In this document: piece by piece, positions 857-12,283 of the stretch | How the letters are laid out: each line of letters starts with the position of its first letter | How positions within the stretch are numbered: position 1 is the stretch's first letter | Source of the DNA: Promethearchaeota archaeon | GTDB lineage: Archaea; Asgardarchaeota; Lokiarchaeia; Sigyniarchaeales; SOKP01 | DNA: 16,792 nt | Reading direction: 5' to 3' | NCBI GenBank assembly: GCA_011364925.1 | Contig: RDOA01000021.1 | Location: forward strand, 37,511-54,302 | Program-made: the position numbers and the translations under genes | Notes under the pieces: generated by a model | The model's database searches: none | What the model saw: only the letters and a program-made list of their open reading frames with translations | Told to the model about the DNA's origin: nothing

Positions 857-2065
857 TTATAGGAATAAATTAATCAAAGGAAGTAGTTGTTGTTTGAAAT
901 AATCTATTTTTTCATACATTAATTCCACATTATCTGAAAGAAGCCATAAATATACGGGTATATTTAACTCTGAATATTCAAAGAGTTTTTCTCCTCGAAT
1001 ACTAAAGCCATTCAGAGGAAAATTAAGCGTCATCGAAGGTTCTCTCATTAATCCAATTGAATTATGAAAATTTGAAAGCGTTTGCATAATTAATGCGGTA
1101 TTGTTTAAGAGAGCCTCGTCAATATCAGAATTCGTAAAACTTCCGAATATTAATCCATCCATAGAAATCAAACTTGTTGCCTTTCCCTCAATTGTATTTG
1201 TGAAATCTTCAAGAATATTTACTATAATTTCAGAAGTTTCAGAAACTAGCTTCAAAGCTTCGCTAAACATTTGCATTATCGTTTCTCTCTGATATATAGT
1301 TGTGTCGGCATAACTGATAGTTGTCTTTTCGTGCTCTCTTATGATATTATTGAACTTATTTTTTATAGCGTTGACATTATTCTGCCATTCTAGAGTTGTA
1401 CGAACATCTTGATCACTTTTAGACAAAACCACCAACACAGGAGGAAATTCATTTAAATCATTCAATACTTTTAAGACTTGACGGAAATAATTAGCTGCTT
1501 CAGCGAATCTATCGCTATCTTGGGTGTCAATAACATATAAAACAAGATCTGCTTCAGTAAAAAACAATTCTGGTCGATTAAAATAGAGTTTTTCTCGGTA
1601 TTGAACCTGACCTCCTAAATCCCAAGAAAGTATTGGATACCCAAAGAAATCTAATTTCTCTCGTTTTACGCCCCTTGTTGGTAGAAGAGACTTAATGATT
1701 GAAAATTTATCTTGTAGAACAGCTAAGATGCTGGTTTTTCCACCATTATCCAAACCGATCATTAATAACTTTTTATGGGATTTTATTTTCTCTTTTATCG
1801 CTTTTTCTAATACTTGAGCGATTTTAACCCATTTTACAAGGACAGAAGGAGGGATCTCTTTGATATCAGGAAGATTCTCTAATGAAAGATGTGCTAACTC
1901 TTCTATGTTTTTTACATTGTATTCAGCCAATTTTTCAGAAGAAATTTGGTCTATCCCAATTAGAGTATCCGGCTTGAATTTTAAGGCTTCGTCTAACTCG
2001 TTAAGGATAATCGAACTTTTGAAAAAATCTTTAATTACAATGTTCCTAGTCTCTTCTTCAGTCAT
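857..2065 (-). CDS. Arf/Rag-like small GTPase with N-terminal helix-hairpin-helix-like domain and C-terminal roadblock-like domain
   Basis: G1 GLDNGGKTS, G2 PTRG, G3 WDLGGQ, G4 SKSD and a G5-like TTIY. The C-terminal ATSLISMDGLIFGS is a roadblock-type motif. The N-terminal LIGIDQISSEKLAEYNVKNIEELA is HhH-like. Confidence 0.88.
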   Translation of the reverse strand: MTEEETRNIVIKDFFKSSIILNELDEALKFKPDTLIGIDQISSEKLAEYNVKNIEELAHLSLENLPDIKEIPPSVLVKWVKIAQVLEKAIKEKIKSHKKLLMIGLDNGGKTSILAVLQDKFSIIKSLLPTRGVKREKLDFFGYPILSWDLGGQVQYREKLYFNRPELFFTEADLVLYVIDTQDSDRFAEAANYFRQVLKVLNDLNEFPPVLVVLSKSDQDVRTTLEWQNNVNAIKNKFNNIIREHEKTTISYADTTIYQRETIMQMFSEALKLVSETSEIIVNILEDFTNTIEGKATSLISMDGLIFGSFTNSDIDEALLNNTALIMQTLSNFHNSIGLMREPSMTLNFPLNGFSIRGEKLFEYSELNIPVYLWLLSDNVELMYEKIDYFKQQLLPLINLFL

Positions 2066-2238
2066 GGTACATCGGATTTAATATCAAATTAACTATTTTT
2101 TATACTATAAGTTTATTTTATAGTAAAAGATCTAATTAATAAAATTTTAGTTTTGTGTAAAACCATAATTATTTATTATACTTGTATCATATAAATTTTA
2201 GAAATAAATAAGGGCTTTTGTAAAAGCATAAAGGGTAA

Positions 2239-3438
2239 TTGATATTGTCTGAACGGCACCCAGAAAACATTGTTATCTGTATTGACACATCTAGATCTAT
2301 GTACCGTGCAGATTATAAACCAAATCGCTTGAGAAGCAGCGTAGAAGCCGTTAAAAAATTAGTAAACGAAAGATTTGCGGGAGATAACTCTTCTGCTTTT
2401 GCGGTTGTTAATTTTTCAGACAATCCAAAAAAAAGTGTTGATTTTACCGCTGATACAAGCCTAATCTTTGAAGCTTTAGACTCATTGGAAGTCTCAGGGA
2501 AATCAGCTATGGGTGAAGCTATAGGTTTATCAATTAAGTTGATTATTTCCGAGTTGCGTAAAATTGAGGCTAAAATTCCTCGTATTCTTGTTATATCTGA
2601 TGGTAATTTCACTAATACCTCCGTAGATCCATTGAAAATGGCTCGTTTAGCACAAGGATTAAATATTAAAATAGACGCATTTCGTTTAGGTGAACTGTCT
2701 CCTCTAAATACATTAAAAAGGATGAGCGATCTCACAGGAGGTAATTATTATTATAATAATGACGATCAATCGTTATTACAAGCAGCACACGATTTGGCTA
2801 TTTCAAATATAAAAACCTACGGTGATGGAGCTGCGGCATTTATCGAAAACCCTGCTTTTCTCCGAAAAATTGCTGCTAATCTTTTACGAGTTCAAGATTT
2901 AACTAAAGATCAAGAACAACGCTTACTACAAATAAGAGGTTTGGCAGATTATAAAAAATGTTCTATATGTTTTTCTGATGAGAATCCATACACGAAAAGT
3001 TCTTTTTATGTTAGCGGCCGTTATTGCCCTAACTGCCAAACGCCATATCATGTCCATTGTTTATCATCTTGGGCTAATTCTCAAAAGGAAAAAATTATGA
3101 AACAAGCAGGGACAGTGCGATGCCCTCATTGTTTTTATTTATTGAAAATACCTGCTGAAGTCTCACAAGTCCAAAAACTCACATCTCTTGCGAAACCTAT
3201 TATTAAAGAAAAGAAGGAACCTGCTATACCTGAAATCTCCCATGTAGAAAAGATTGATTTCCGTGCCCTAAATTCAGATGCAATGTTCAATTCTTGTCCC
3301 GTGTGTCATTATATATTCGAAGAAGGTCAAAATATCCTTCAGTGCCAAAACTGTGAAACTTTATACCATGAAAAATGTTTCAAAGATTTACATGAAAGTA
3401 GATGTAAAAGTTGCGGTGTAAAATTGCATCAATTCTGA
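2239..3438 (+). CDS. vWA-domain protein with two C4HC3 RING/PHD-like zinc fingers (Ssl1/p44-like architecture)
   Basis: MIDAS motif DTSRS within IVICIDTSRSMYRADYKPNRL, plus ILVISDG and TGGNY. Finger 1 is CSIC-x18-CPNC-x4-HxxC-x20-CPHC; finger 2 is CPVC-x12-CQNC-x4-HxxC-x8-CKSC. TTG start preceded by AGGGT. Confidence 0.88.
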   Translation: MILSERHPENIVICIDTSRSMYRADYKPNRLRSSVEAVKKLVNERFAGDNSSAFAVVNFSDNPKKSVDFTADTSLIFEALDSLEVSGKSAMGEAIGLSIKLIISELRKIEAKIPRILVISDGNFTNTSVDPLKMARLAQGLNIKIDAFRLGELSPLNTLKRMSDLTGGNYYYNNDDQSLLQAAHDLAISNIKTYGDGAAAFIENPAFLRKIAANLLRVQDLTKDQEQRLLQIRGLADYKKCSICFSDENPYTKSSFYVSGRYCPNCQTPYHVHCLSSWANSQKEKIMKQAGTVRCPHCFYLLKIPAEVSQVQKLTSLAKPIIKEKKEPAIPEISHVEKIDFRALNSDAMFNSCPVCHYIFEEGQNILQCQNCETLYHEKCFKDLHESRCKSCGVKLHQF

Positions 3439-3531: not shown

Positions 3532-4413
3532 ATGATTTCAGATTATTTTTTATACGATGACATGAAATTAGGTTTCGGACATTTCGATTTACCGCCATTT
3601 CTAATAGGTACAATGTTCTATCAAGGACAAACGATTCTAGACAGGAATAATCCGCGTCAATTTGATGAGACTAAGGCGAAAAAGAGAATTGACGCTCATA
3701 TGAGCTTGATGGAACAATACAAACTCCCAGGGTTAATCGAAATATCTGCGGTAACACCAGAAGCGATGGTTAAATATTTAGATTTTTATTTAACAAGTTA
3801 CAAACCTCCATTCGTTTTAGGTGGTAGCTTTGACGCCAAAATTGCGGGAATTGAATATTTGAACGAAAATGGCATTAAAAGTGATGAATACATTTATAAC
3901 TCATTATCAAATCTTAAGAATCAAAGCGAACTTGAACTCATTAAGAAACATCGAATATCTTCGATGGTAGTTTTAATCCTTGGAGCTAGTAACATGAATT
4001 CATCTCAAAGATTTGCTTATATTACTGATAAAAACCAACCTGGAAATATAAGTATAATCGATGGATTAAAAAAACATGGAGTTGATAAAATTTGGATCGA
4101 CGGAGGTGTTATTGATATTGAAAGCTTATCACATATCCTCGATACGCAACAAATAGTTAGTCGTTCTCTTAAACTTCCGGTTGGTACTGCCCCTACTCTT
4201 TTTCTATTTAAATATTCTTCTCCTAGATTAAATCTTAAATATCATACTAAATATCGTAAAGCGAGTGTCATGTTTATAGCGTCTTGGTACTCCAATTTTA
4301 TATTTTATGGAGCAATTGAGGACGCAAAAGAATGTTTTGCGTCGGTTTATCAAGCTTTAGAACTAAAAAATGTGATGAAAAACAACAATATTAGACTTTT
4401 TGACAAGATTTAA
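3532..4413 (+). CDS. mtrH: MtrH-family (tetrahydromethanopterin/tetrahydrofolate:corrinoid) methyltransferase homologue
   Basis: N-terminal PPFLIGTMFYQGQ matches the MtrH PTVLxGTIFY motif. Also TPEAMVKYLDF, IYNSL, LPVGTAP and FIFYGAIE; 293 aa. No other mtr subunits are in the window. Confidence 0.78.
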   Translation: MISDYFLYDDMKLGFGHFDLPPFLIGTMFYQGQTILDRNNPRQFDETKAKKRIDAHMSLMEQYKLPGLIEISAVTPEAMVKYLDFYLTSYKPPFVLGGSFDAKIAGIEYLNENGIKSDEYIYNSLSNLKNQSELELIKKHRISSMVVLILGASNMNSSQRFAYITDKNQPGNISIIDGLKKHGVDKIWIDGGVIDIESLSHILDTQQIVSRSLKLPVGTAPTLFLFKYSSPRLNLKYHTKYRKASVMFIASWYSNFIFYGAIEDAKECFASVYQALELKNVMKNNNIRLFDKI

Positions 4414-4518: not shown

Positions 4519-4550
4519 ATTAATTTCAAACTTCCAGTGTAATATTGAAA

Positions 4551-5696
4551 ATGTATAATAACGATGAAGTAGAAGAAAAAGAAGTTGAGGCAATCAAATT
4601 AATTGACTATGCTGAAACATTGGCTGATAGTGGAAAGGGAGATGACGCAATAAGAGAATATGAAAAAGCAGCCCAAATTTATCTTGATTTAGGGAGTTAT
4701 ATTAAATTAGATGAGTTGTATATTAGAATAACTCGAATAATCTCTCAATTTAAAAACAACATCCAAGCGGTATACCGACTAAAGTCTATCATTCGAAAAA
4801 CTGAGGAGTTAATGCTACACGAAATCTCAGCAAAATTGTTGGTTCAATTAGGTAATATCTCCTTTAGAATGAAAGATTGGGAGACTGCTGGAGAAAGTTG
4901 GAAAAAAGCTTCAGAATATTTTTTGGAGTCAGATCCCGAAGATTATAATAATTTAGCCTCGATTCTTCTGTTAGAAGCTGGTCAAGCATTTGAAAAATCT
5001 CAACTTACAAAAGATATAGGTAAACAGTTGATTTTAAAGGCAGTTATGATCATTAATGAATTCGATGAATTATACAAACAAGAGGAAAAAAAAGCTCACT
5101 ATTTACTTTTAAATAAAGAATTCGAAGCTGCTGCCGATAAATTTTATACAATTTCAACTTATTTTAAAAAGTCGTTAGAAAACCTTGAAGATTTGTTAAA
5201 GGATGCAGAATCTAAAAATACTGTATTGAACGCTAAGGCAAGATTCATACATTTCGTCGCAGAGTATCAAACTTTCTCAGCAATATGCTTATCTGTTACA
5301 GAAAATCCAGATTACAAAGAGAAAATTATCGACCTTGGTAAGGATTCGATAAATCTCTTTAAAACATCTATATCACTTCTGAAAGATTACCTTAATCAAT
5401 TTAATAAAGATTTTGATAAAGAAATCATTTTAAGAATTACTTTTGACACGATGTTGTTATCAATTCTCCAAAAGATTGTAAAAAGCGAAGATATAATCTG
5501 TAGTGAATTTTTATTAAATGAACTTGAGCAAAATAAAGCATTGGTAGAAACCCTAAAAAAAAGCCCCTACTACATAATTGTTGTAAAAATTGAAAAAACC
5601 GGTTTTGATGATGCTTTTGACGATCTCTTATCGATAAATTTAGGTCATTTTGAAAAAATCAAAAATGTTCTAATAACTAGTTTACAGGAGAAATAG
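4551..5696 (+). CDS. Alpha-helical repeat (TPR / alpha-SNAP-like) protein
   Basis: Repeated helical units such as AIREYEKAAQIYLDLG, WETAGESWKKASEYF and FEAAADKFYTISTYF. ATG at 4551, with an alternative TTG at 4545. Confidence 0.7.
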   Translation: MYNNDEVEEKEVEAIKLIDYAETLADSGKGDDAIREYEKAAQIYLDLGSYIKLDELYIRITRIISQFKNNIQAVYRLKSIIRKTEELMLHEISAKLLVQLGNISFRMKDWETAGESWKKASEYFLESDPEDYNNLASILLLEAGQAFEKSQLTKDIGKQLILKAVMIINEFDELYKQEEKKAHYLLLNKEFEAAADKFYTISTYFKKSLENLEDLLKDAESKNTVLNAKARFIHFVAEYQTFSAICLSVTENPDYKEKIIDLGKDSINLFKTSISLLKDYLNQFNKDFDKEIILRITFDTMLLSILQKIVKSEDIICSEFLLNELEQNKALVETLKKSPYYIIVVKIEKTGFDDAFDDLLSINLGHFEKIKNVLITSLQEK

Positions 5697-9261: not shown

Positions 9262-11448
9262 ATGAGCGAAAAAGAGATTTATTTACCAATTGTATTCCAT
9301 TTTCATCAACCAGTCAACAACTTCGAGTTTGTATTCGAAGATGTTTATAAGAAAGCATACAGTCCTTTAGTTGAACACATTTTTAATTATCCAGAGATAA
9401 AATTTACTCTCCACCTCTCGGGTAATTTATTAGAATGGTTACTCGATAAAAAGCCAGATTTTATAAATATGTTGAGAGTCATGGCTAAAAGAGATCAAAT
9501 AGAAATTATAGGGGGTGGATTCTATGAACCTATTTATGCGATTATTCCCGATAGAGACAAAATCACCCAAATGAAAATGCTGTCTGATTTAATTAAGAAA
9601 GAGTTCGGATTAGAGGTAAAGGGTGCGTGGTTATCTGAGAGAGTTTGGGAACCAAGTTATCCCTCATTTTTAAGTAAAGTAGGATTAAAATATGTAATTG
9701 TTGACGATAATCATTTTAGGGCTACTGGATTAACAGAAATAGACACTTTTTATTCTTATATTACAGAAGACGAAGGAAAAACGATTAGAATCTTTCCTAT
9801 TAATGAAGAATTAAGATATCTGACTCCTTGGAAACCTACCTATTTTTCTATTAATTACTTAAAGAAGTTTGCTACTAAAAAGGGTGATAGGGTGGCTTTG
9901 TTAATATCCGACGCCGAAAAAATGGGTGTTTGGGGGACTACTCATCAAATCTGTTATGTAGACGGACAGGGACATAAAGAAGGAGATGGAGGGAAACCGT
10001 TTATCCCAGCCTTATTCGACCAAATAATGGACAACAAGTGGATAAAATCGATTACTCTTTCAGAATACATGGATACATATCCAGCTAAGAGTTTGATATA
10101 TCTACCAACTGCGAGCTACGATAAGATGGAAGAATGGGTGTTACCAACCAAAGAGAGAATTAAGTTTGAAAAAGTAAGAAAAGAGTTGAAATCGAATCCA
10201 GAAAGACAACAGGAATATCAGTTTTTAAAGGGTGGATTTTGGAGATATTTCTTAGTTAAATATCCCGAATCAAACAATATGCATAAAAAAATGCTTTACA
10301 TTAGAGAAAAACTCACGCAAGTTGAACGAATAATAGCTAATTTGGAAAATGAAAAACATAGAAATAATGCTCAAAGTATGATAAATGAGGCTTGGATGGA
10401 AATTTATAAATCGCAGTGTAACGATTGTTATTGGCATGGATTATTTGGAGGTGTATATTTACAATTTTTGCGATTTTCAGTGTACACTCATCTAATTAAT
10501 GCCGAAAAAATTGTTGATAATTTATACACTCAATTCCAGTCAAATAAAAGCAAGTTCGTTTCGATTAATCTACTAGACTTCAATAAAGACAGCAGGATGG
10601 AGGTTCTTATCGAATCTGATCTTCTTAACATCTACATAAATCCATTAGATGGTGGTACTATTTTTGAATTAGATTATAAACCAAAATCTTACAATATTCT
10701 AAATGTATTAACGCGATGGCCAGAGGCTTATCACAATAATGAAGATATTGAAGAATCAGATGTATTGATTGATCGATATAAGAGAAACATGTTTCGGCTA
10801 CGATTTCTTCATAAGAATACATCTCTAGACCTGCTTGAAGCAGATCAATACCAAGAGTATGGATCCTTCATCAATGGCGAATTTAAAGTTATTAAAATTG
10901 AAAAAGATTTAAATTCGGCTGTAATCGAACTTGAAATGAATGGATGTGTAAAAACTCCGACCTCAAACAATAATTATCCATGTAAGATCAATAAAGTAAT
11001 TAAACTTGAAGATTCTACGATCAGTTTTACTGTAAAAGGGAACTTTGAGAAACTTTTAAATAAGGAGACATTATTAAATGAGATTTTAGATGAGTTATTT
11101 TTAGGTATAGATCTTCCATTCTTTTTTAACGGAGACCCCACTAAATTTCGATGGGAAAGTAAAGATGTCAAATTCGCAAAAGGTGATGTAAACCATCTGT
11201 TAAAGGAATTTGAATTTGCGGGTCAACATTTTAAAACTTATGACGAGTCTTACGACTTACACTTAGAATTTTTTCTCTCTAATCAATCAAAAAATAATAA
11301 AAATCTCGCTAGAATGTACAAATTTCCTATAATAGCATATACTTTTACAGATGAAGGATATAAAAAAATATATCAAGGGATAAACCTTTTATCTCGATTC
11401 AAAATAGGTGCTGAGTTTGAGTTTAAAATCAATATTTCTATTTTTTAA
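9262..11448 (+). CDS. GH57 alpha-amylase / 4-alpha-glucanotransferase
   Basis: FHFHQP, GGGFYEPI, WLSERVWEP (nucleophile Glu), SDAEKMG (acid/base Asp), YLPTASYDKMEEW, KYPESNNMHK and QCNDCYWHGLFGGVY. ATG at 9262 fits the family N-terminus better than the TTG at 9196. Confidence 0.92.
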   Translation: MSEKEIYLPIVFHFHQPVNNFEFVFEDVYKKAYSPLVEHIFNYPEIKFTLHLSGNLLEWLLDKKPDFINMLRVMAKRDQIEIIGGGFYEPIYAIIPDRDKITQMKMLSDLIKKEFGLEVKGAWLSERVWEPSYPSFLSKVGLKYVIVDDNHFRATGLTEIDTFYSYITEDEGKTIRIFPINEELRYLTPWKPTYFSINYLKKFATKKGDRVALLISDAEKMGVWGTTHQICYVDGQGHKEGDGGKPFIPALFDQIMDNKWIKSITLSEYMDTYPAKSLIYLPTASYDKMEEWVLPTKERIKFEKVRKELKSNPERQQEYQFLKGGFWRYFLVKYPESNNMHKKMLYIREKLTQVERIIANLENEKHRNNAQSMINEAWMEIYKSQCNDCYWHGLFGGVYLQFLRFSVYTHLINAEKIVDNLYTQFQSNKSKFVSINLLDFNKDSRMEVLIESDLLNIYINPLDGGTIFELDYKPKSYNILNVLTRWPEAYHNNEDIEESDVLIDRYKRNMFRLRFLHKNTSLDLLEADQYQEYGSFINGEFKVIKIEKDLNSAVIELEMNGCVKTPTSNNNYPCKINKVIKLEDSTISFTVKGNFEKLLNKETLLNEILDELFLGIDLPFFFNGDPTKFRWESKDVKFAKGDVNHLLKEFEFAGQHFKTYDESYDLHLEFFLSNQSKNNKNLARMYKFPIIAYTFTDEGYKKIYQGINLLSRFKIGAEFEFKINISIF

Positions 11449-11569
11449 AGGTTAAGACCGAAATAATTGATAATTCTGAATAAAAGTTTATTAGTATACA
11501 AAAATTTTTTTATATTAAAATATACTCTCTCAGTCTCAAATTTTTGAATGCAATTTCAATTAAAATTGG

Positions 11570-12283
11570 ATGGTTTTAAAATTGCTTAGCATTAGATCAA
11601 GAAATAATTTGTTCGTTCTTTTTAGCCTATTAGCTGTACTTGTTTTAATATTAATTTCCCCAGTCGCCTCAAATTTGGTACAAGCGCTTGGTTTTAGGCA
11701 TGGAGAGTCTACAATAAATTATAGGACAGATTATAGTGATGGATATGGAGATGTAATTATGAAATTCGAAATTAATAGTAATCCACAGGCAGAAGAGAGA
11801 TATTATTGGAAAATATCATGTAATTTTAGATCAGGCGGCGCAGTAGAAATTGTCGGTATTAGTCAACTAAATTTTACTATTGATGTTAATGGGTTAGCGA
11901 TATATTCGAATTTCCTTAACTGGACTCCCCCACATGAACAATATTCCCTAAATCCTGTGAGTTTGGTTCGATTAACAAAAAATAATGTGATTTCATGGAC
12001 TGGAAATATAAATGTTCAATATATTTCTAATAGTATACTTCAAACTGAATCACACGAATTCACTTTAAGAATCGTTGTTCCGATGGGTTCTGAAGATTAT
12101 TACAATTTACAAATACTTAGCAATTTTGTATTCTTCTTTTGGTTGTTGGCTTTCCCAGGATCACCGATTATTATTAAATTTATAATAAAACCCGGTTTTT
12201 CTGTTCCTTTAGATGACGATCGTAAAGAAGCGGAGAGAAAATACTTTGACTTTTTCAAAAAAGGTAAAAAAGAACAAGATTAA
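11570..12283 (+). CDS. Hypothetical membrane-anchored protein (N-terminal signal/TM, beta-rich ectodomain, C-terminal TM, charged tail)
   Basis: Hydrophobic segments LFVLFSLLAVLVLILISPVA and FVFFFWLLAFPGSPIIIKFII; sequons NFT and NWT. Confidence 0.75.
   Translation: MVLKLLSIRSRNNLFVLFSLLAVLVLILISPVASNLVQALGFRHGESTINYRTDYSDGYGDVIMKFEINSNPQAEERYYWKISCNFRSGGAVEIVGISQLNFTIDVNGLAIYSNFLNWTPPHEQYSLNPVSLVRLTKNNVISWTGNINVQYISNSILQTESHEFTLRIVVPMGSEDYYNLQILSNFVFFFWLLAFPGSPIIIKFIIKPGFSVPLDDDRKEAERKYFDFFKKGKKEQD

Follow-up and report, generated by a model that had tools for sequence, protein, structure and literature searches.

A lokiarchaeial vWA protein with two RING-type fingers, encoded beside a Rag/Arf-like GTPase gene, as a candidate ubiquitin ligase or adaptor

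Does this locus of an Asgard archaeon encode a forerunner of a eukaryotic TFIIH or proteasome subunit, or a ligase of the archaeon's own ubiquitin system? To our knowledge, the core subunits of TFIIH (except the helicases XPB and XPD) and Rpn10 are generally held to be eukaryotic inventions. An Asgard protein with an Ssl1/Rpn10-type vWA domain and two RINGs would be a testable candidate for the origin of those subunits. The gene is located in a window of 16,792 nucleotides, the whole stretch of contig RDOA01000021.1 that was analysed (Table 1). The initial annotation, based on the letters of the DNA, proposed a relative of p44/Ssl1 or a vWA-RING ubiquitin ligase. The open reading frame is genuine, and all strings quoted in that annotation are found in the translation, among them IDTSRSMYRADYKPNRL at residues 15-31 and SDLTGGNY at residues 163-170.

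Table 1. Features of the locus, with positions in the window and residues of the vWA-RING-RING protein.
Feature	Position	Strand	Details
Arf/Rag-like GTPase gene, 402 aa	857..2065	-	Pfam Arf 70.6 bits, Gtr1_RagA 69.9 bits; divergent from the vWA-RING gene
Shared AT-rich intergenic region	2066..2238	.	Between the divergent GTPase and vWA-RING genes
vWA-RING-RING gene	2239..3438	+	399 codons from TTG 2239; probable start TTG 2245, giving 397 aa
vWA domain, residues 10-190	2266..2808	+	Pfam VWA_2 66 bits, VWA 58 bits, Ssl1 24.1 bits
MIDAS DxSxS (D16, S18, S20)	2284..2298	+	Invariant in 28 orthologues
Further MIDAS residues S89, D121	2503-2505, 2599-2601	+	Invariant in 28 orthologues
Helical linker, residues 204-234 (NPAFLRKIAA.LLRVQDLTKDQE...)	2848..2940	+	Nearly invariant
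Finger 1, C4HC3 RING (RING-CH/RINGv type), residues 241-300	2959..3138	+	E2-contact triad I243, W278, P296
Finger 2, C4HC3 RING, RING-H2-like, residues 353-392	3295..3414	+	Pfam Prok-RING_1 below cut-off; profile and fold matches
SNAP-like TPR protein gene	4545..5696	+	Pfam TPR_12 and SNAP, both weak

Since the orthologues open with MSER, translation probably begins at the TTG at 2245. The search identified 331 homologues at E<=1e-3, the closest with 94% identity. The family is strongly conserved and is annotated as Loki- or Promethearchaeota in the public records. Within the phylum sample of 301 genomes it is seen only in the source's own class, none being found in the other 224 genomes. Two old paralogues are present in nearly every own-class genome that has the family; in the source genome, the second paralogue is encoded at C48:127092-128243. 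Some longer relatives (619-700 aa) carry C-terminal extensions, in which no Pfam match was obtained. The only names given to the members in public records are "VWA domain-containing protein" and "YegL", and no description of the family, of an Asgard vWA-RING protein or of an Asgard p44 was found in the searchable literature.

The N-terminal vWA domain has a complete MIDAS and belongs to the Ssl1/Rpn10/BatA type. Its AF2 model has a pLDDT mostly above 85. The DxSxS motif had been described as intact, in agreement with our alignments, where all five MIDAS residues are kept in the orthologues. Over both paralogue groups, these positions hold D in 47/48 sequences, S/T in 47/48, S in 43/47, S/T in 34/51 and D in 49/53. 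By fold comparison (VIA), the Ssl1 vWA (4wfq) gave a Z-score of 24.6, BatA (4jdu) 23.8 and Rpn10 22.8. BatA and BatB together span 23.3-23.8, a near tie with p44. With the family profile, Rpn10 and human p44 have the best scores, followed closely by bacterial BatA/BatB. In a library of 1.8 billion proteins, the latter rank next beyond the family itself, at 55-63 bits. BatA/BatB, whose genes are found in MoxR operons, share the same DxSxSM...DxxPxRL start, but they are anchored in the membrane by an N-terminal segment (PF07584) and lack RINGs. The anchor, present in BatA-like controls, has no match in the vWA-RING-RING protein, where the vWA begins at residue 10.

The likeness to the Rpn10 vWA, also suggested by the initial annotation, is visible at the sequence level. 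Rpn10 reaches 68 bits with the family profile, compared to 61 bits for human p44, and 33 bits with the single vWA sequence. The Rpn10 vWA is the best PDB sequence match for this profile, for the protein (3e-7) and for its paralogue (2.8e-6), and Rpn10/S5a has a common D-x-S-x-x-M-x3-D-[YF]-x-P-x-R start in the alignment. Such scores would suit an Rpn10-like receptor or adaptor associated with the proteasome, with the vWA docking on the proteasome or on an AAA+ unfoldase cap. The architecture makes this role very improbable. Rpn10 carries C-terminal UIMs, while the C-terminal half of the protein consists of two RINGs, absent from Rpn10, and neither a UIM nor another ubiquitin-binding motif was detected with Pfam. 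Moreover, Rpn10 reads DxSxW in the alignment, a degenerate MIDAS, against the full motif here, and no proteasome genes are located near the gene. A Sec23/24-like protein, in which a vWA trunk and a zinc finger bind an Arf-family GTPase, was also considered and rejected: the related ArnB entry 8s05 has a Z-score of 21.6, below p44, BatA and Rpn10, and the Sec23/24 domain order is different.

The vWA domain is followed by a linker of two helices (pLDDT 84-96, with the C-terminal half modelled alone) and by the two fingers, both modelled as cross-brace RINGs with a pLDDT of about 90. All 16 zinc ligands are unchanged in 28 orthologues. In 60 sequences from the two paralogue groups, with identities as low as about 25%, 14 of the 16 positions are invariant, the exceptions being C356, gapped in one sequence, and C380, a His in two. 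This invariance across orthologues and paralogue groups indicates that the finger pattern exceeds chance.

In finger 1, the ligands are C241,C244 / C263,C266 / H271,C274 / C295,C298. Within the same 60 sequences, the eight ligands, I243 and W278 are each conserved 60/60, and P296 is conserved in 56. The initial annotation had likened this finger to FANCL. Indeed, the FANCL RING is the top structural match, and the E2-contact Ile, Trp and Pro are kept. The VIA comparison aligned 69 residues with the FANCL match 4ccg_X (Z 6.6, rmsd 2.6), FANCL 7kzp_L gave Z 6.2 with an rmsd of 1.7, and the Listerin RINGs gave Z 5.5-6.0. No finger Z-score reaches 8, in keeping with the small size of the domains. 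The FANCL and Listerin matches share 23-29% identity with finger 1, as well as the C4HC3 ligand pattern and a Trp four residues past ligand 6. Their architectures are wholly different, with no vWA.

The C4HC3 spacing of finger 1 is also that of PHD fingers. The paralogue's finger 1 is narrowly above the Pfam PHD cut-off (24.8 vs 24), and PZP/PHD entries appear among the weak Foldseek matches. Instead of being a RING, finger 1 might be of the PHD type and read a peptide or histone tail. This hardly seems probable, as the invariant CxIC, C-L-x2-W and CPxC pattern corresponds to a RING E2 surface. The VIA matches aligning finger 1 comprise the RINGs of FANCL, Listerin, Slx1 and Deltex and the entry 3lrq (titled U-box domain), with no PHD among them.

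Finger 2 is preceded by a modelled beta-hairpin from about residue 333, and its ligands are C353,C356 / C369,C372 / H377,C380 / C389,C392. Pfam matches are Prok-RING_1 (PF14446) at 27.1 bits, below the cut-off of 29.1 (16.6 bits for the paralogue), and zf-RING_2 at 24.9 bits. The family profile matches the RINGs of Arkadia, RNF165, RLIM and RNF38 at 28-36 bits over this finger. By fold (VIA), the p44 RING (Z 6.3-6.8) is tied with RNF38, RNF165 and RNF12 (Z 6.0-6.5). The E2-contact positions vary in finger 2: V/Y/I/F at the first, L/M/V at the second and K/R/P at the third. The LHES string ahead of the last CxxC, proposed earlier as a p44-like feature, is not kept. Orthologues have LTDK, LTNS, LFDS, LNNS and others in its place, and the string was therefore given no weight and dismissed as a p44-like feature.

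The proposed kinship with p44/Ssl1 holds for the overall likeness, and specific p44 orthology is not supported. Both proteins have an N-terminal vWA, a zinc module and a C-terminal RING-like finger, and they are of similar length. Full-length p44/Ssl1 chains lead the Foldseek list over ~400 aligned columns (E 7e-15), and eukaryotic GTF2H2 forms the nearest named ESM-Atlas clusters beyond the family's own (0.90-0.87). Identity to p44 is only 13-15%. The Pfam Ssl1 model (PF04056, cut-off 27) gives 24.1 and 26.4 bits for this copy, 33-35 bits for the paralogue and up to 49 bits for orthologues, compared to 0-19 bits for BatA controls. Its cut-off is exceeded by most family members, in 75 of the 301 phylum genomes, all of the own class, and by no other protein of these 301 genomes.

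The protein could be considered as a true counterpart of TFIIH p44/Ssl1, its vWA binding and stimulating the archaeal XPD and the two paralogues pairing like p44 and p34. The Ssl1 vWA has the highest fold score, the p44 RING is among the best matches of finger 2, two paralogues are present per genome, and an XPD-type DEAD_2 gene is encoded. Such an equivalence nevertheless appears improbable. The middle module of p44 is a four-Cys ribbon with a single zinc. Here, the module has eight invariant C4HC3 ligands and adopts a binuclear RING fold in the model, and the C1_4 signature (PF07975) gave no match at E<=1 in this protein and none in the Pfam lists of 120 relatives. Additionally, this copy remains under the Ssl1 cut-off, Rpn10 equals or exceeds p44 by sequence score, and BatA/BatB are nearly equal to p44 by fold. 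The p44 motif reads D-x-S-x-T, in comparison with the full DxSxS MIDAS of the archaeal protein.

A TFIIH context was not detected around the gene either. XPD is encoded on another contig (C26), and the constant neighbour encodes a Rag-like GTPase instead of XPD or XPB; the paralogue has MetRS as its conserved neighbour. A profile search did not detect Tfb2, for which the control matched nowhere either, nor a separate Tfb4, whose sole match was weak and on the vWA-RING-RING protein itself. The absence of the family from the 224 sampled genomes outside the class is a further argument against equivalence. Descent of p44 from the vWA-RING-RING family is possible. The family might represent an archaeal sister or ancestor-like form of p44/Ssl1, and possibly of Rpn10, so that p44 would have arisen from a GTPase-linked vWA-RING ligase and the two paralogues would prefigure p44 and p34; we regard this scenario as doubtful.

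The gene neighbourhood is highly constant. The Rag/Arf-like GTPase gene adjoins the vWA-RING gene in 40/40 examined loci with flank and is oriented head-to-head in 39/40, although the compared genomes are relatives and these counts overstate independence. The head-to-head orientation was seen in 28/28 close loci with flank and in all 12 loci of a diverse set. In one further f2 genome, G162 (locus L058), vWA-RING is followed by TPR and then GTPase, all on one strand; the genes were thus rearranged but stayed together. A second vWA-RING-like gene is present on the other side of the GTPase in genome G180. Outside families f1 and f2, no full-length orthologue of the GTPase was detected. An HhH domain at the N-terminus of the GTPase is unsupported (HHH_2, E 0.16).

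A SNAP-like TPR gene usually accompanies the pair. The TPR protein falls with SNAP clusters of the ESM-Atlas (0.92-0.93), with low recognition. Its gene is the third cluster member kept in the distant family f2 (loci L041, L048, L051 and L058), and in f1 it was not detected at either g4 locus (L042, L049). The constant association with the GTPase and TPR genes suggests a role of the vWA-RING-RING protein in the pathway of the GTPase. A defence-system reading was dropped, as no PADLOC defence model was matched by the vWA-RING, GTPase or TPR gene.

The description of the protein as a candidate ubiquitin E3 is a fair one, in view of the FANCL-like finger 1 with its E2-contact residues and of the ubiquitin, E1 and E2 genes in the same genome. 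These are organized in a cassette (C19:26071-28153) encoding Ub (26071-26247), E1 (26429-27331) and E2 (27737-28153), and a second E2 gene is present on C41 (C41:13-450). Both fingers have the eight-ligand, cross-brace binuclear zinc site of RING ligases, as indicated by conservation, model and fold, and finger 1 also has the hydrophobic E2-docking surface. No basic linchpin follows the last Cys in either finger: this residue is Phe or Tyr in finger 1 (F/Y299) and mostly Gly in finger 2 (G393). A basic Arg or Lys at this position occurs in many active RINGs, not in all. Active E3s that join a vWA to a RING are known from the plant families RGLG and WAV3/SOR1, which differ from the present protein by a copine-like vWA, another domain order and a single RING. 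The Ssl1 RING has also reportedly E3 activity.

With its three modules, among them the E2 surface of finger 1, the protein is most likely a RING-type E3 ligase or an E3-like adaptor, tied to the pathway of the Rag/Arf-like GTPase, a reading that we hold with moderate confidence. It would be cytoplasmic. The vWA may dock a partner or substrate via a metal-coordinated acidic residue, and the putative Ile-Trp-Pro surface of finger 1, the classical E2 docking site of RINGs, would recruit the Ub-charged E2 of the genome's own system. Finger 2 more probably functions in assembly, in partner binding or in pairing with finger 1. The protein could be an effector controlled by the GTPase, or it could modify the GTPase or its partners.

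A RING fold alone is no proof of ligase activity, since the RINGs of p44, GATOR2 and HOPS serve assembly and not catalysis. Similarly, the vWA and both RINGs might act as assembly modules only, building a complex around the GTPase and the TPR protein without ubiquitin transfer. The conserved clustering with these genes, the variable E2-contact positions of finger 2, the two linchpins that are lacking and the nearly invariant linker, which resembles a binding surface, would all be in agreement with a scaffold, as would the location of the gene outside the Ub-E1-E2 cassette. We nonetheless consider it somewhat unlikely. Exactly the Ile, Trp and Pro that RINGs canonically use for E2 contact are strictly conserved in finger 1 across both paralogue groups, which would be difficult to account for without an E2-like partner, and the top fold matches are catalytic RINGs.

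The described RING components of the minimal Asgard ubiquitin system are small proteins. As a RING-type ligase or adaptor, the vWA-RING-RING protein would add a large, substrate-docking E3 to this system. Its fixed pairing with the GTPase and SNAP-like TPR genes suggests that ubiquitin-type signalling and small GTPases could already have been coupled in Asgard archaea.

The divergent vWA-RING and GTPase genes do not form an operon, a point against the proposed functional link between the two. An alignment of 17 intergenic regions revealed a block at ~2159-2204 that is conserved across the genus and holds the TATA-like sequence CATATAAA.

The coding frame is preceded by a stop codon immediately 5' of the TTG at 2239. 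Translation more likely begins at the TTG at 2245, since the orthologues begin with MSER. The strings quoted in the initial annotation for the vWA opening, SDLTGGNY and the two C4HC3 fingers were all found in the ORF. The protein has 331 homologues at E<=1e-3, the closest being 94% identical, and over 100 clusters exceed 57%. Among 28 orthologues (59-86% identity), no variation occurs at the MIDAS metal-site residues D16, S18, S20, S89 and D121 or at any of the 16 zinc ligands. These comparisons mark the ORF as a genuine, strongly constrained gene. The 'LHES' string, which had been read as a p44-like feature, is not conserved among the same orthologues, so that comparison is dropped.

Coordinates of the vWA-RING gene, its parts and associated genes (window positions unless a contig is named)
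Feature	Position	Strand	Remarks
Arf/Rag-like GTPase gene	857-2065	-	402 aa; head-to-head with the vWA-RING gene; Pfam Arf 70.6 bits, Gtr1_RagA 69.9 bits
Intergenic block	2159-2204		
vWA-RING-RING ORF	2239-3438	+	open frame, 399 codons
vWA opening	residues 15-31		
SDLTGGNY	residues 163-170		
Finger 1	residues 241-298		eight-ligand C4HC3
Finger 2	residues 353-392		eight-ligand C4HC3
MtrH-like methyltransferase gene	3532-4413		between the vWA-RING and TPR genes
TPR protein gene	4545-5696	+	383 aa; resembles SNAP (soluble NSF attachment protein) in weak Pfam matches and ESM-Atlas features
Paralogue	contig C48:127092-128243 (L002:1480-2667)		own genome; 35% identical to the window protein
Ubiquitin-E1-E2 cassette	contig C19:26071-28153		own genome
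Two weak ubiquitin-like matches	contig C19:23895-24358		just upstream of the cassette
Extra diverged vWA-RING-like gene	G180:C66 (L050) 10973-11917		24% identity over residues 7-305
Extended vWA-RING-like frame	G294:C21:4571-5452		700-aa frame

The C-terminal half was folded with a 60-sequence alignment, reaching a mean pLDDT of 89.9. The best superposition of finger 1 (VIA) is with 4ccg_X (Z 6.6, rmsd 2.6, 69 residues, 23% identity), the UBE2T-FANCL RING complex. Together with the fit to 7kzp_L, which is FANCL within the Fanconi core complex (Z 6.2, rmsd 1.7), this bears out the resemblance to FANCL proposed earlier; the Listerin RINGs come next (Z 5.5-6.0, 26-29% identity). In RING-E2 complexes, the classical E2-docking surface is formed by the positions that correspond to I243, W278 and P296 of finger 1. 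Across both paralogue groups, the finger 1 ligands, I243 and W278 are kept in all 60 sequences and P296 in 56, while finger 2 is variable at the matching positions. In both fingers of this alignment, the position that follows the final Cys lacks the basic linchpin. Finger 2 superposes on the p44 RING (Z 6.3-6.8) as well as on the RING-H2 ligases RNF38, RNF165 and RNF12 (Z 6.0-6.5), whereas by sequence profile its matches are RING-H2 ligases (36 bits for Arkadia, 32 bits for RLIM) rather than p44.

In its own genome, the protein is accompanied by a ubiquitin-E1-E2 cassette and a second E2. We place about half of our confidence in the protein being a RING-type E3 ligase or E3-like adaptor, probably acting in the pathway of the neighboring Rag-like GTPase. 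The MIDAS-bearing vWA would dock a partner, finger 1 would recruit an E2, and finger 2, with the invariant linker, would serve in assembly. The finger 1 of the paralogue exceeds the Pfam PHD cut-off, as a PHD-type reader might; beside the FANCL superpositions and the retained E2-contact residues, we give that reading very little credence.

On the vWA domain of the window protein, generic vWA models of Pfam reach 58-66 bits, and Ssl1 and Tfb4 24.1 bits each, both below the cut-off of 27; the paralogue passes the Ssl1 cut-off (33-35 bits). Against PDB sequences, the window protein scores 33.2 bits with Rpn10, 13.9 with human p44 and 31.5, 28.7 and 25.5 with BatA/BatB-type proteins; the paralogue gives 29.8, 22.5 and 18.3, respectively. 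The 60-sequence family profile reaches 68 bits with Rpn10, 57-61 with human p44, 34-37 with yeast Ssl1 and 57, 42 and 39 with the BatA/BatB type. The fold Z-scores of the predicted model (Ssl1/p44 24.6-23.4, BatA 23.8, BatB 23.3, Rpn10 22.8) are near a tie by VIA's own rule. The Pfam Ssl1 model exceeds its curated cut-off in 75 of 301 genomes, all Lokiarchaeia, where its matches (up to 49.7 bits) are exactly the two vWA-RING paralogue groups; no match above the cut-off occurs in 224 other genomes of the sample or in 14 control genomes, and bacterial BatA-like proteins reach 0-19 bits. The vWA is therefore placed in the Ssl1/Rpn10/BatA branch, leaning modestly to the two eukaryotic families; by these scores, it does not fall with generic BatA-like domains apart from p44 and Rpn10. 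An Rpn10-like proteasome adaptor, favored by the Rpn10 scores, is very improbable.

The top Foldseek matches of the full-length model are full-length p44/Ssl1 chains (~400 columns, E 7e-15 to 1e-12), some 3-4 orders of magnitude better than vWA-only p44, Rpn10 and BatB chains, and p44 chains come first again, weakly (E 7e-3), with the C-terminal half alone. In those ESM Atlas clusters that the family itself forms, 76-92% of the members bear Pfam Ssl1; the nearest named clusters after them are eukaryotic GTF2H2 (0.90-0.87). Because of the full-length and GTF2H2 matches, the p44-like layout is real, short of membership. Membership is withheld because the C1_4 signature of Pfam is absent from the protein and from the precomputed Pfam lists of 120 relatives, a binuclear RING stands in the middle where p44 has a single-zinc ribbon, identity to p44 is 13-15%, Tfb2 and a separate Tfb4 were not found in a search for TFIIH partners, and the XPD gene lies on another contig. 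That the protein is a genuine counterpart of p44 and works on XPD is quite improbable.

The full-length architecture was recovered down to ~24% identity in a full-database HMMER search, whose publicly named members are all labeled Lokiarchaeia or Promethearchaeota; a few closer relatives from the homologue search carry the labels Hermod-, Hod- or Thorarchaeota or a bacterium. No paper describing the family was found. Among 301 genomes sampled across the phylum (E<=1e-10), it is carried by 68/68, 7/7 and 1/1 genomes of the Lokiarchaeia families f1, f2 and f4 and by none of the other 225. The two-finger half as sole query gave the same distribution, with only single weak matches beyond the class. 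This restriction counts against the family being a sister of p44, perhaps also of Rpn10, which we consider improbable. Almost all genomes with the family have a second copy; in f1 as in f2, this second group lies beside the gene for methionyl-tRNA synthetase, so the duplication is older than their split. Some members (P0150, P0152 and P0168, 619-686 aa, and the G294 frame) keep the vWA and finger 1 and bear a C-terminal extension of ~300 aa, without a Pfam match in the three proteins.

The head-to-head GTPase/vWA-RING pair occurs in 28/28 loci of close relatives with flank available and in 12/12 more diverse loci, including f2, in which identity to the two window proteins falls to 36-40% and 33-38%. 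In the f2 genome G162 (L058), the order is vWA-RING, TPR, GTPase on a single strand: the genes are rearranged yet kept together. The full-length GTPase orthologue was found in f1 and f2 alone, with only paralogous Rag-like GTPases elsewhere; this co-distribution is no independent test, because the genomes are kin. A purely structural scaffold around the GTPase, the main rival to the E3 reading, is compatible with this pairing; beside the conserved E2-docking residues of finger 1, we hold it to be unlikely. An HhH domain proposed for the GTPase N-terminus was not confirmed, its Pfam match being very weak (HHH_2, E 0.16), and the last 100 residues, a proposed roadblock domain, matched no Pfam model.

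The TPR gene stays clustered with both genes in the distant f2, and none was detected at two loci of the f1 genus g4. The MtrH-like gene is present in most of f1 but missing from g4 and f2, and is therefore probably outside the conserved module. A V4R gene also lies in the wider neighborhood, and PADLOC defense models gave no match. The ~45-nt intergenic block, nearly identical across 17 aligned loci whose vWA-RING proteins are 66-87% identical to that of the window, reads AAAACCATAATTATTTATT...CATATAAA..TTAGAA and contains a TATA-like box that precedes the vWA-RING start by ~45 nt; the block probably serves this gene as promoter or operator. In genome G180, the extra diverged copy leaves the same Rag-like GTPase gene flanked on both sides by vWA-RING-like genes.
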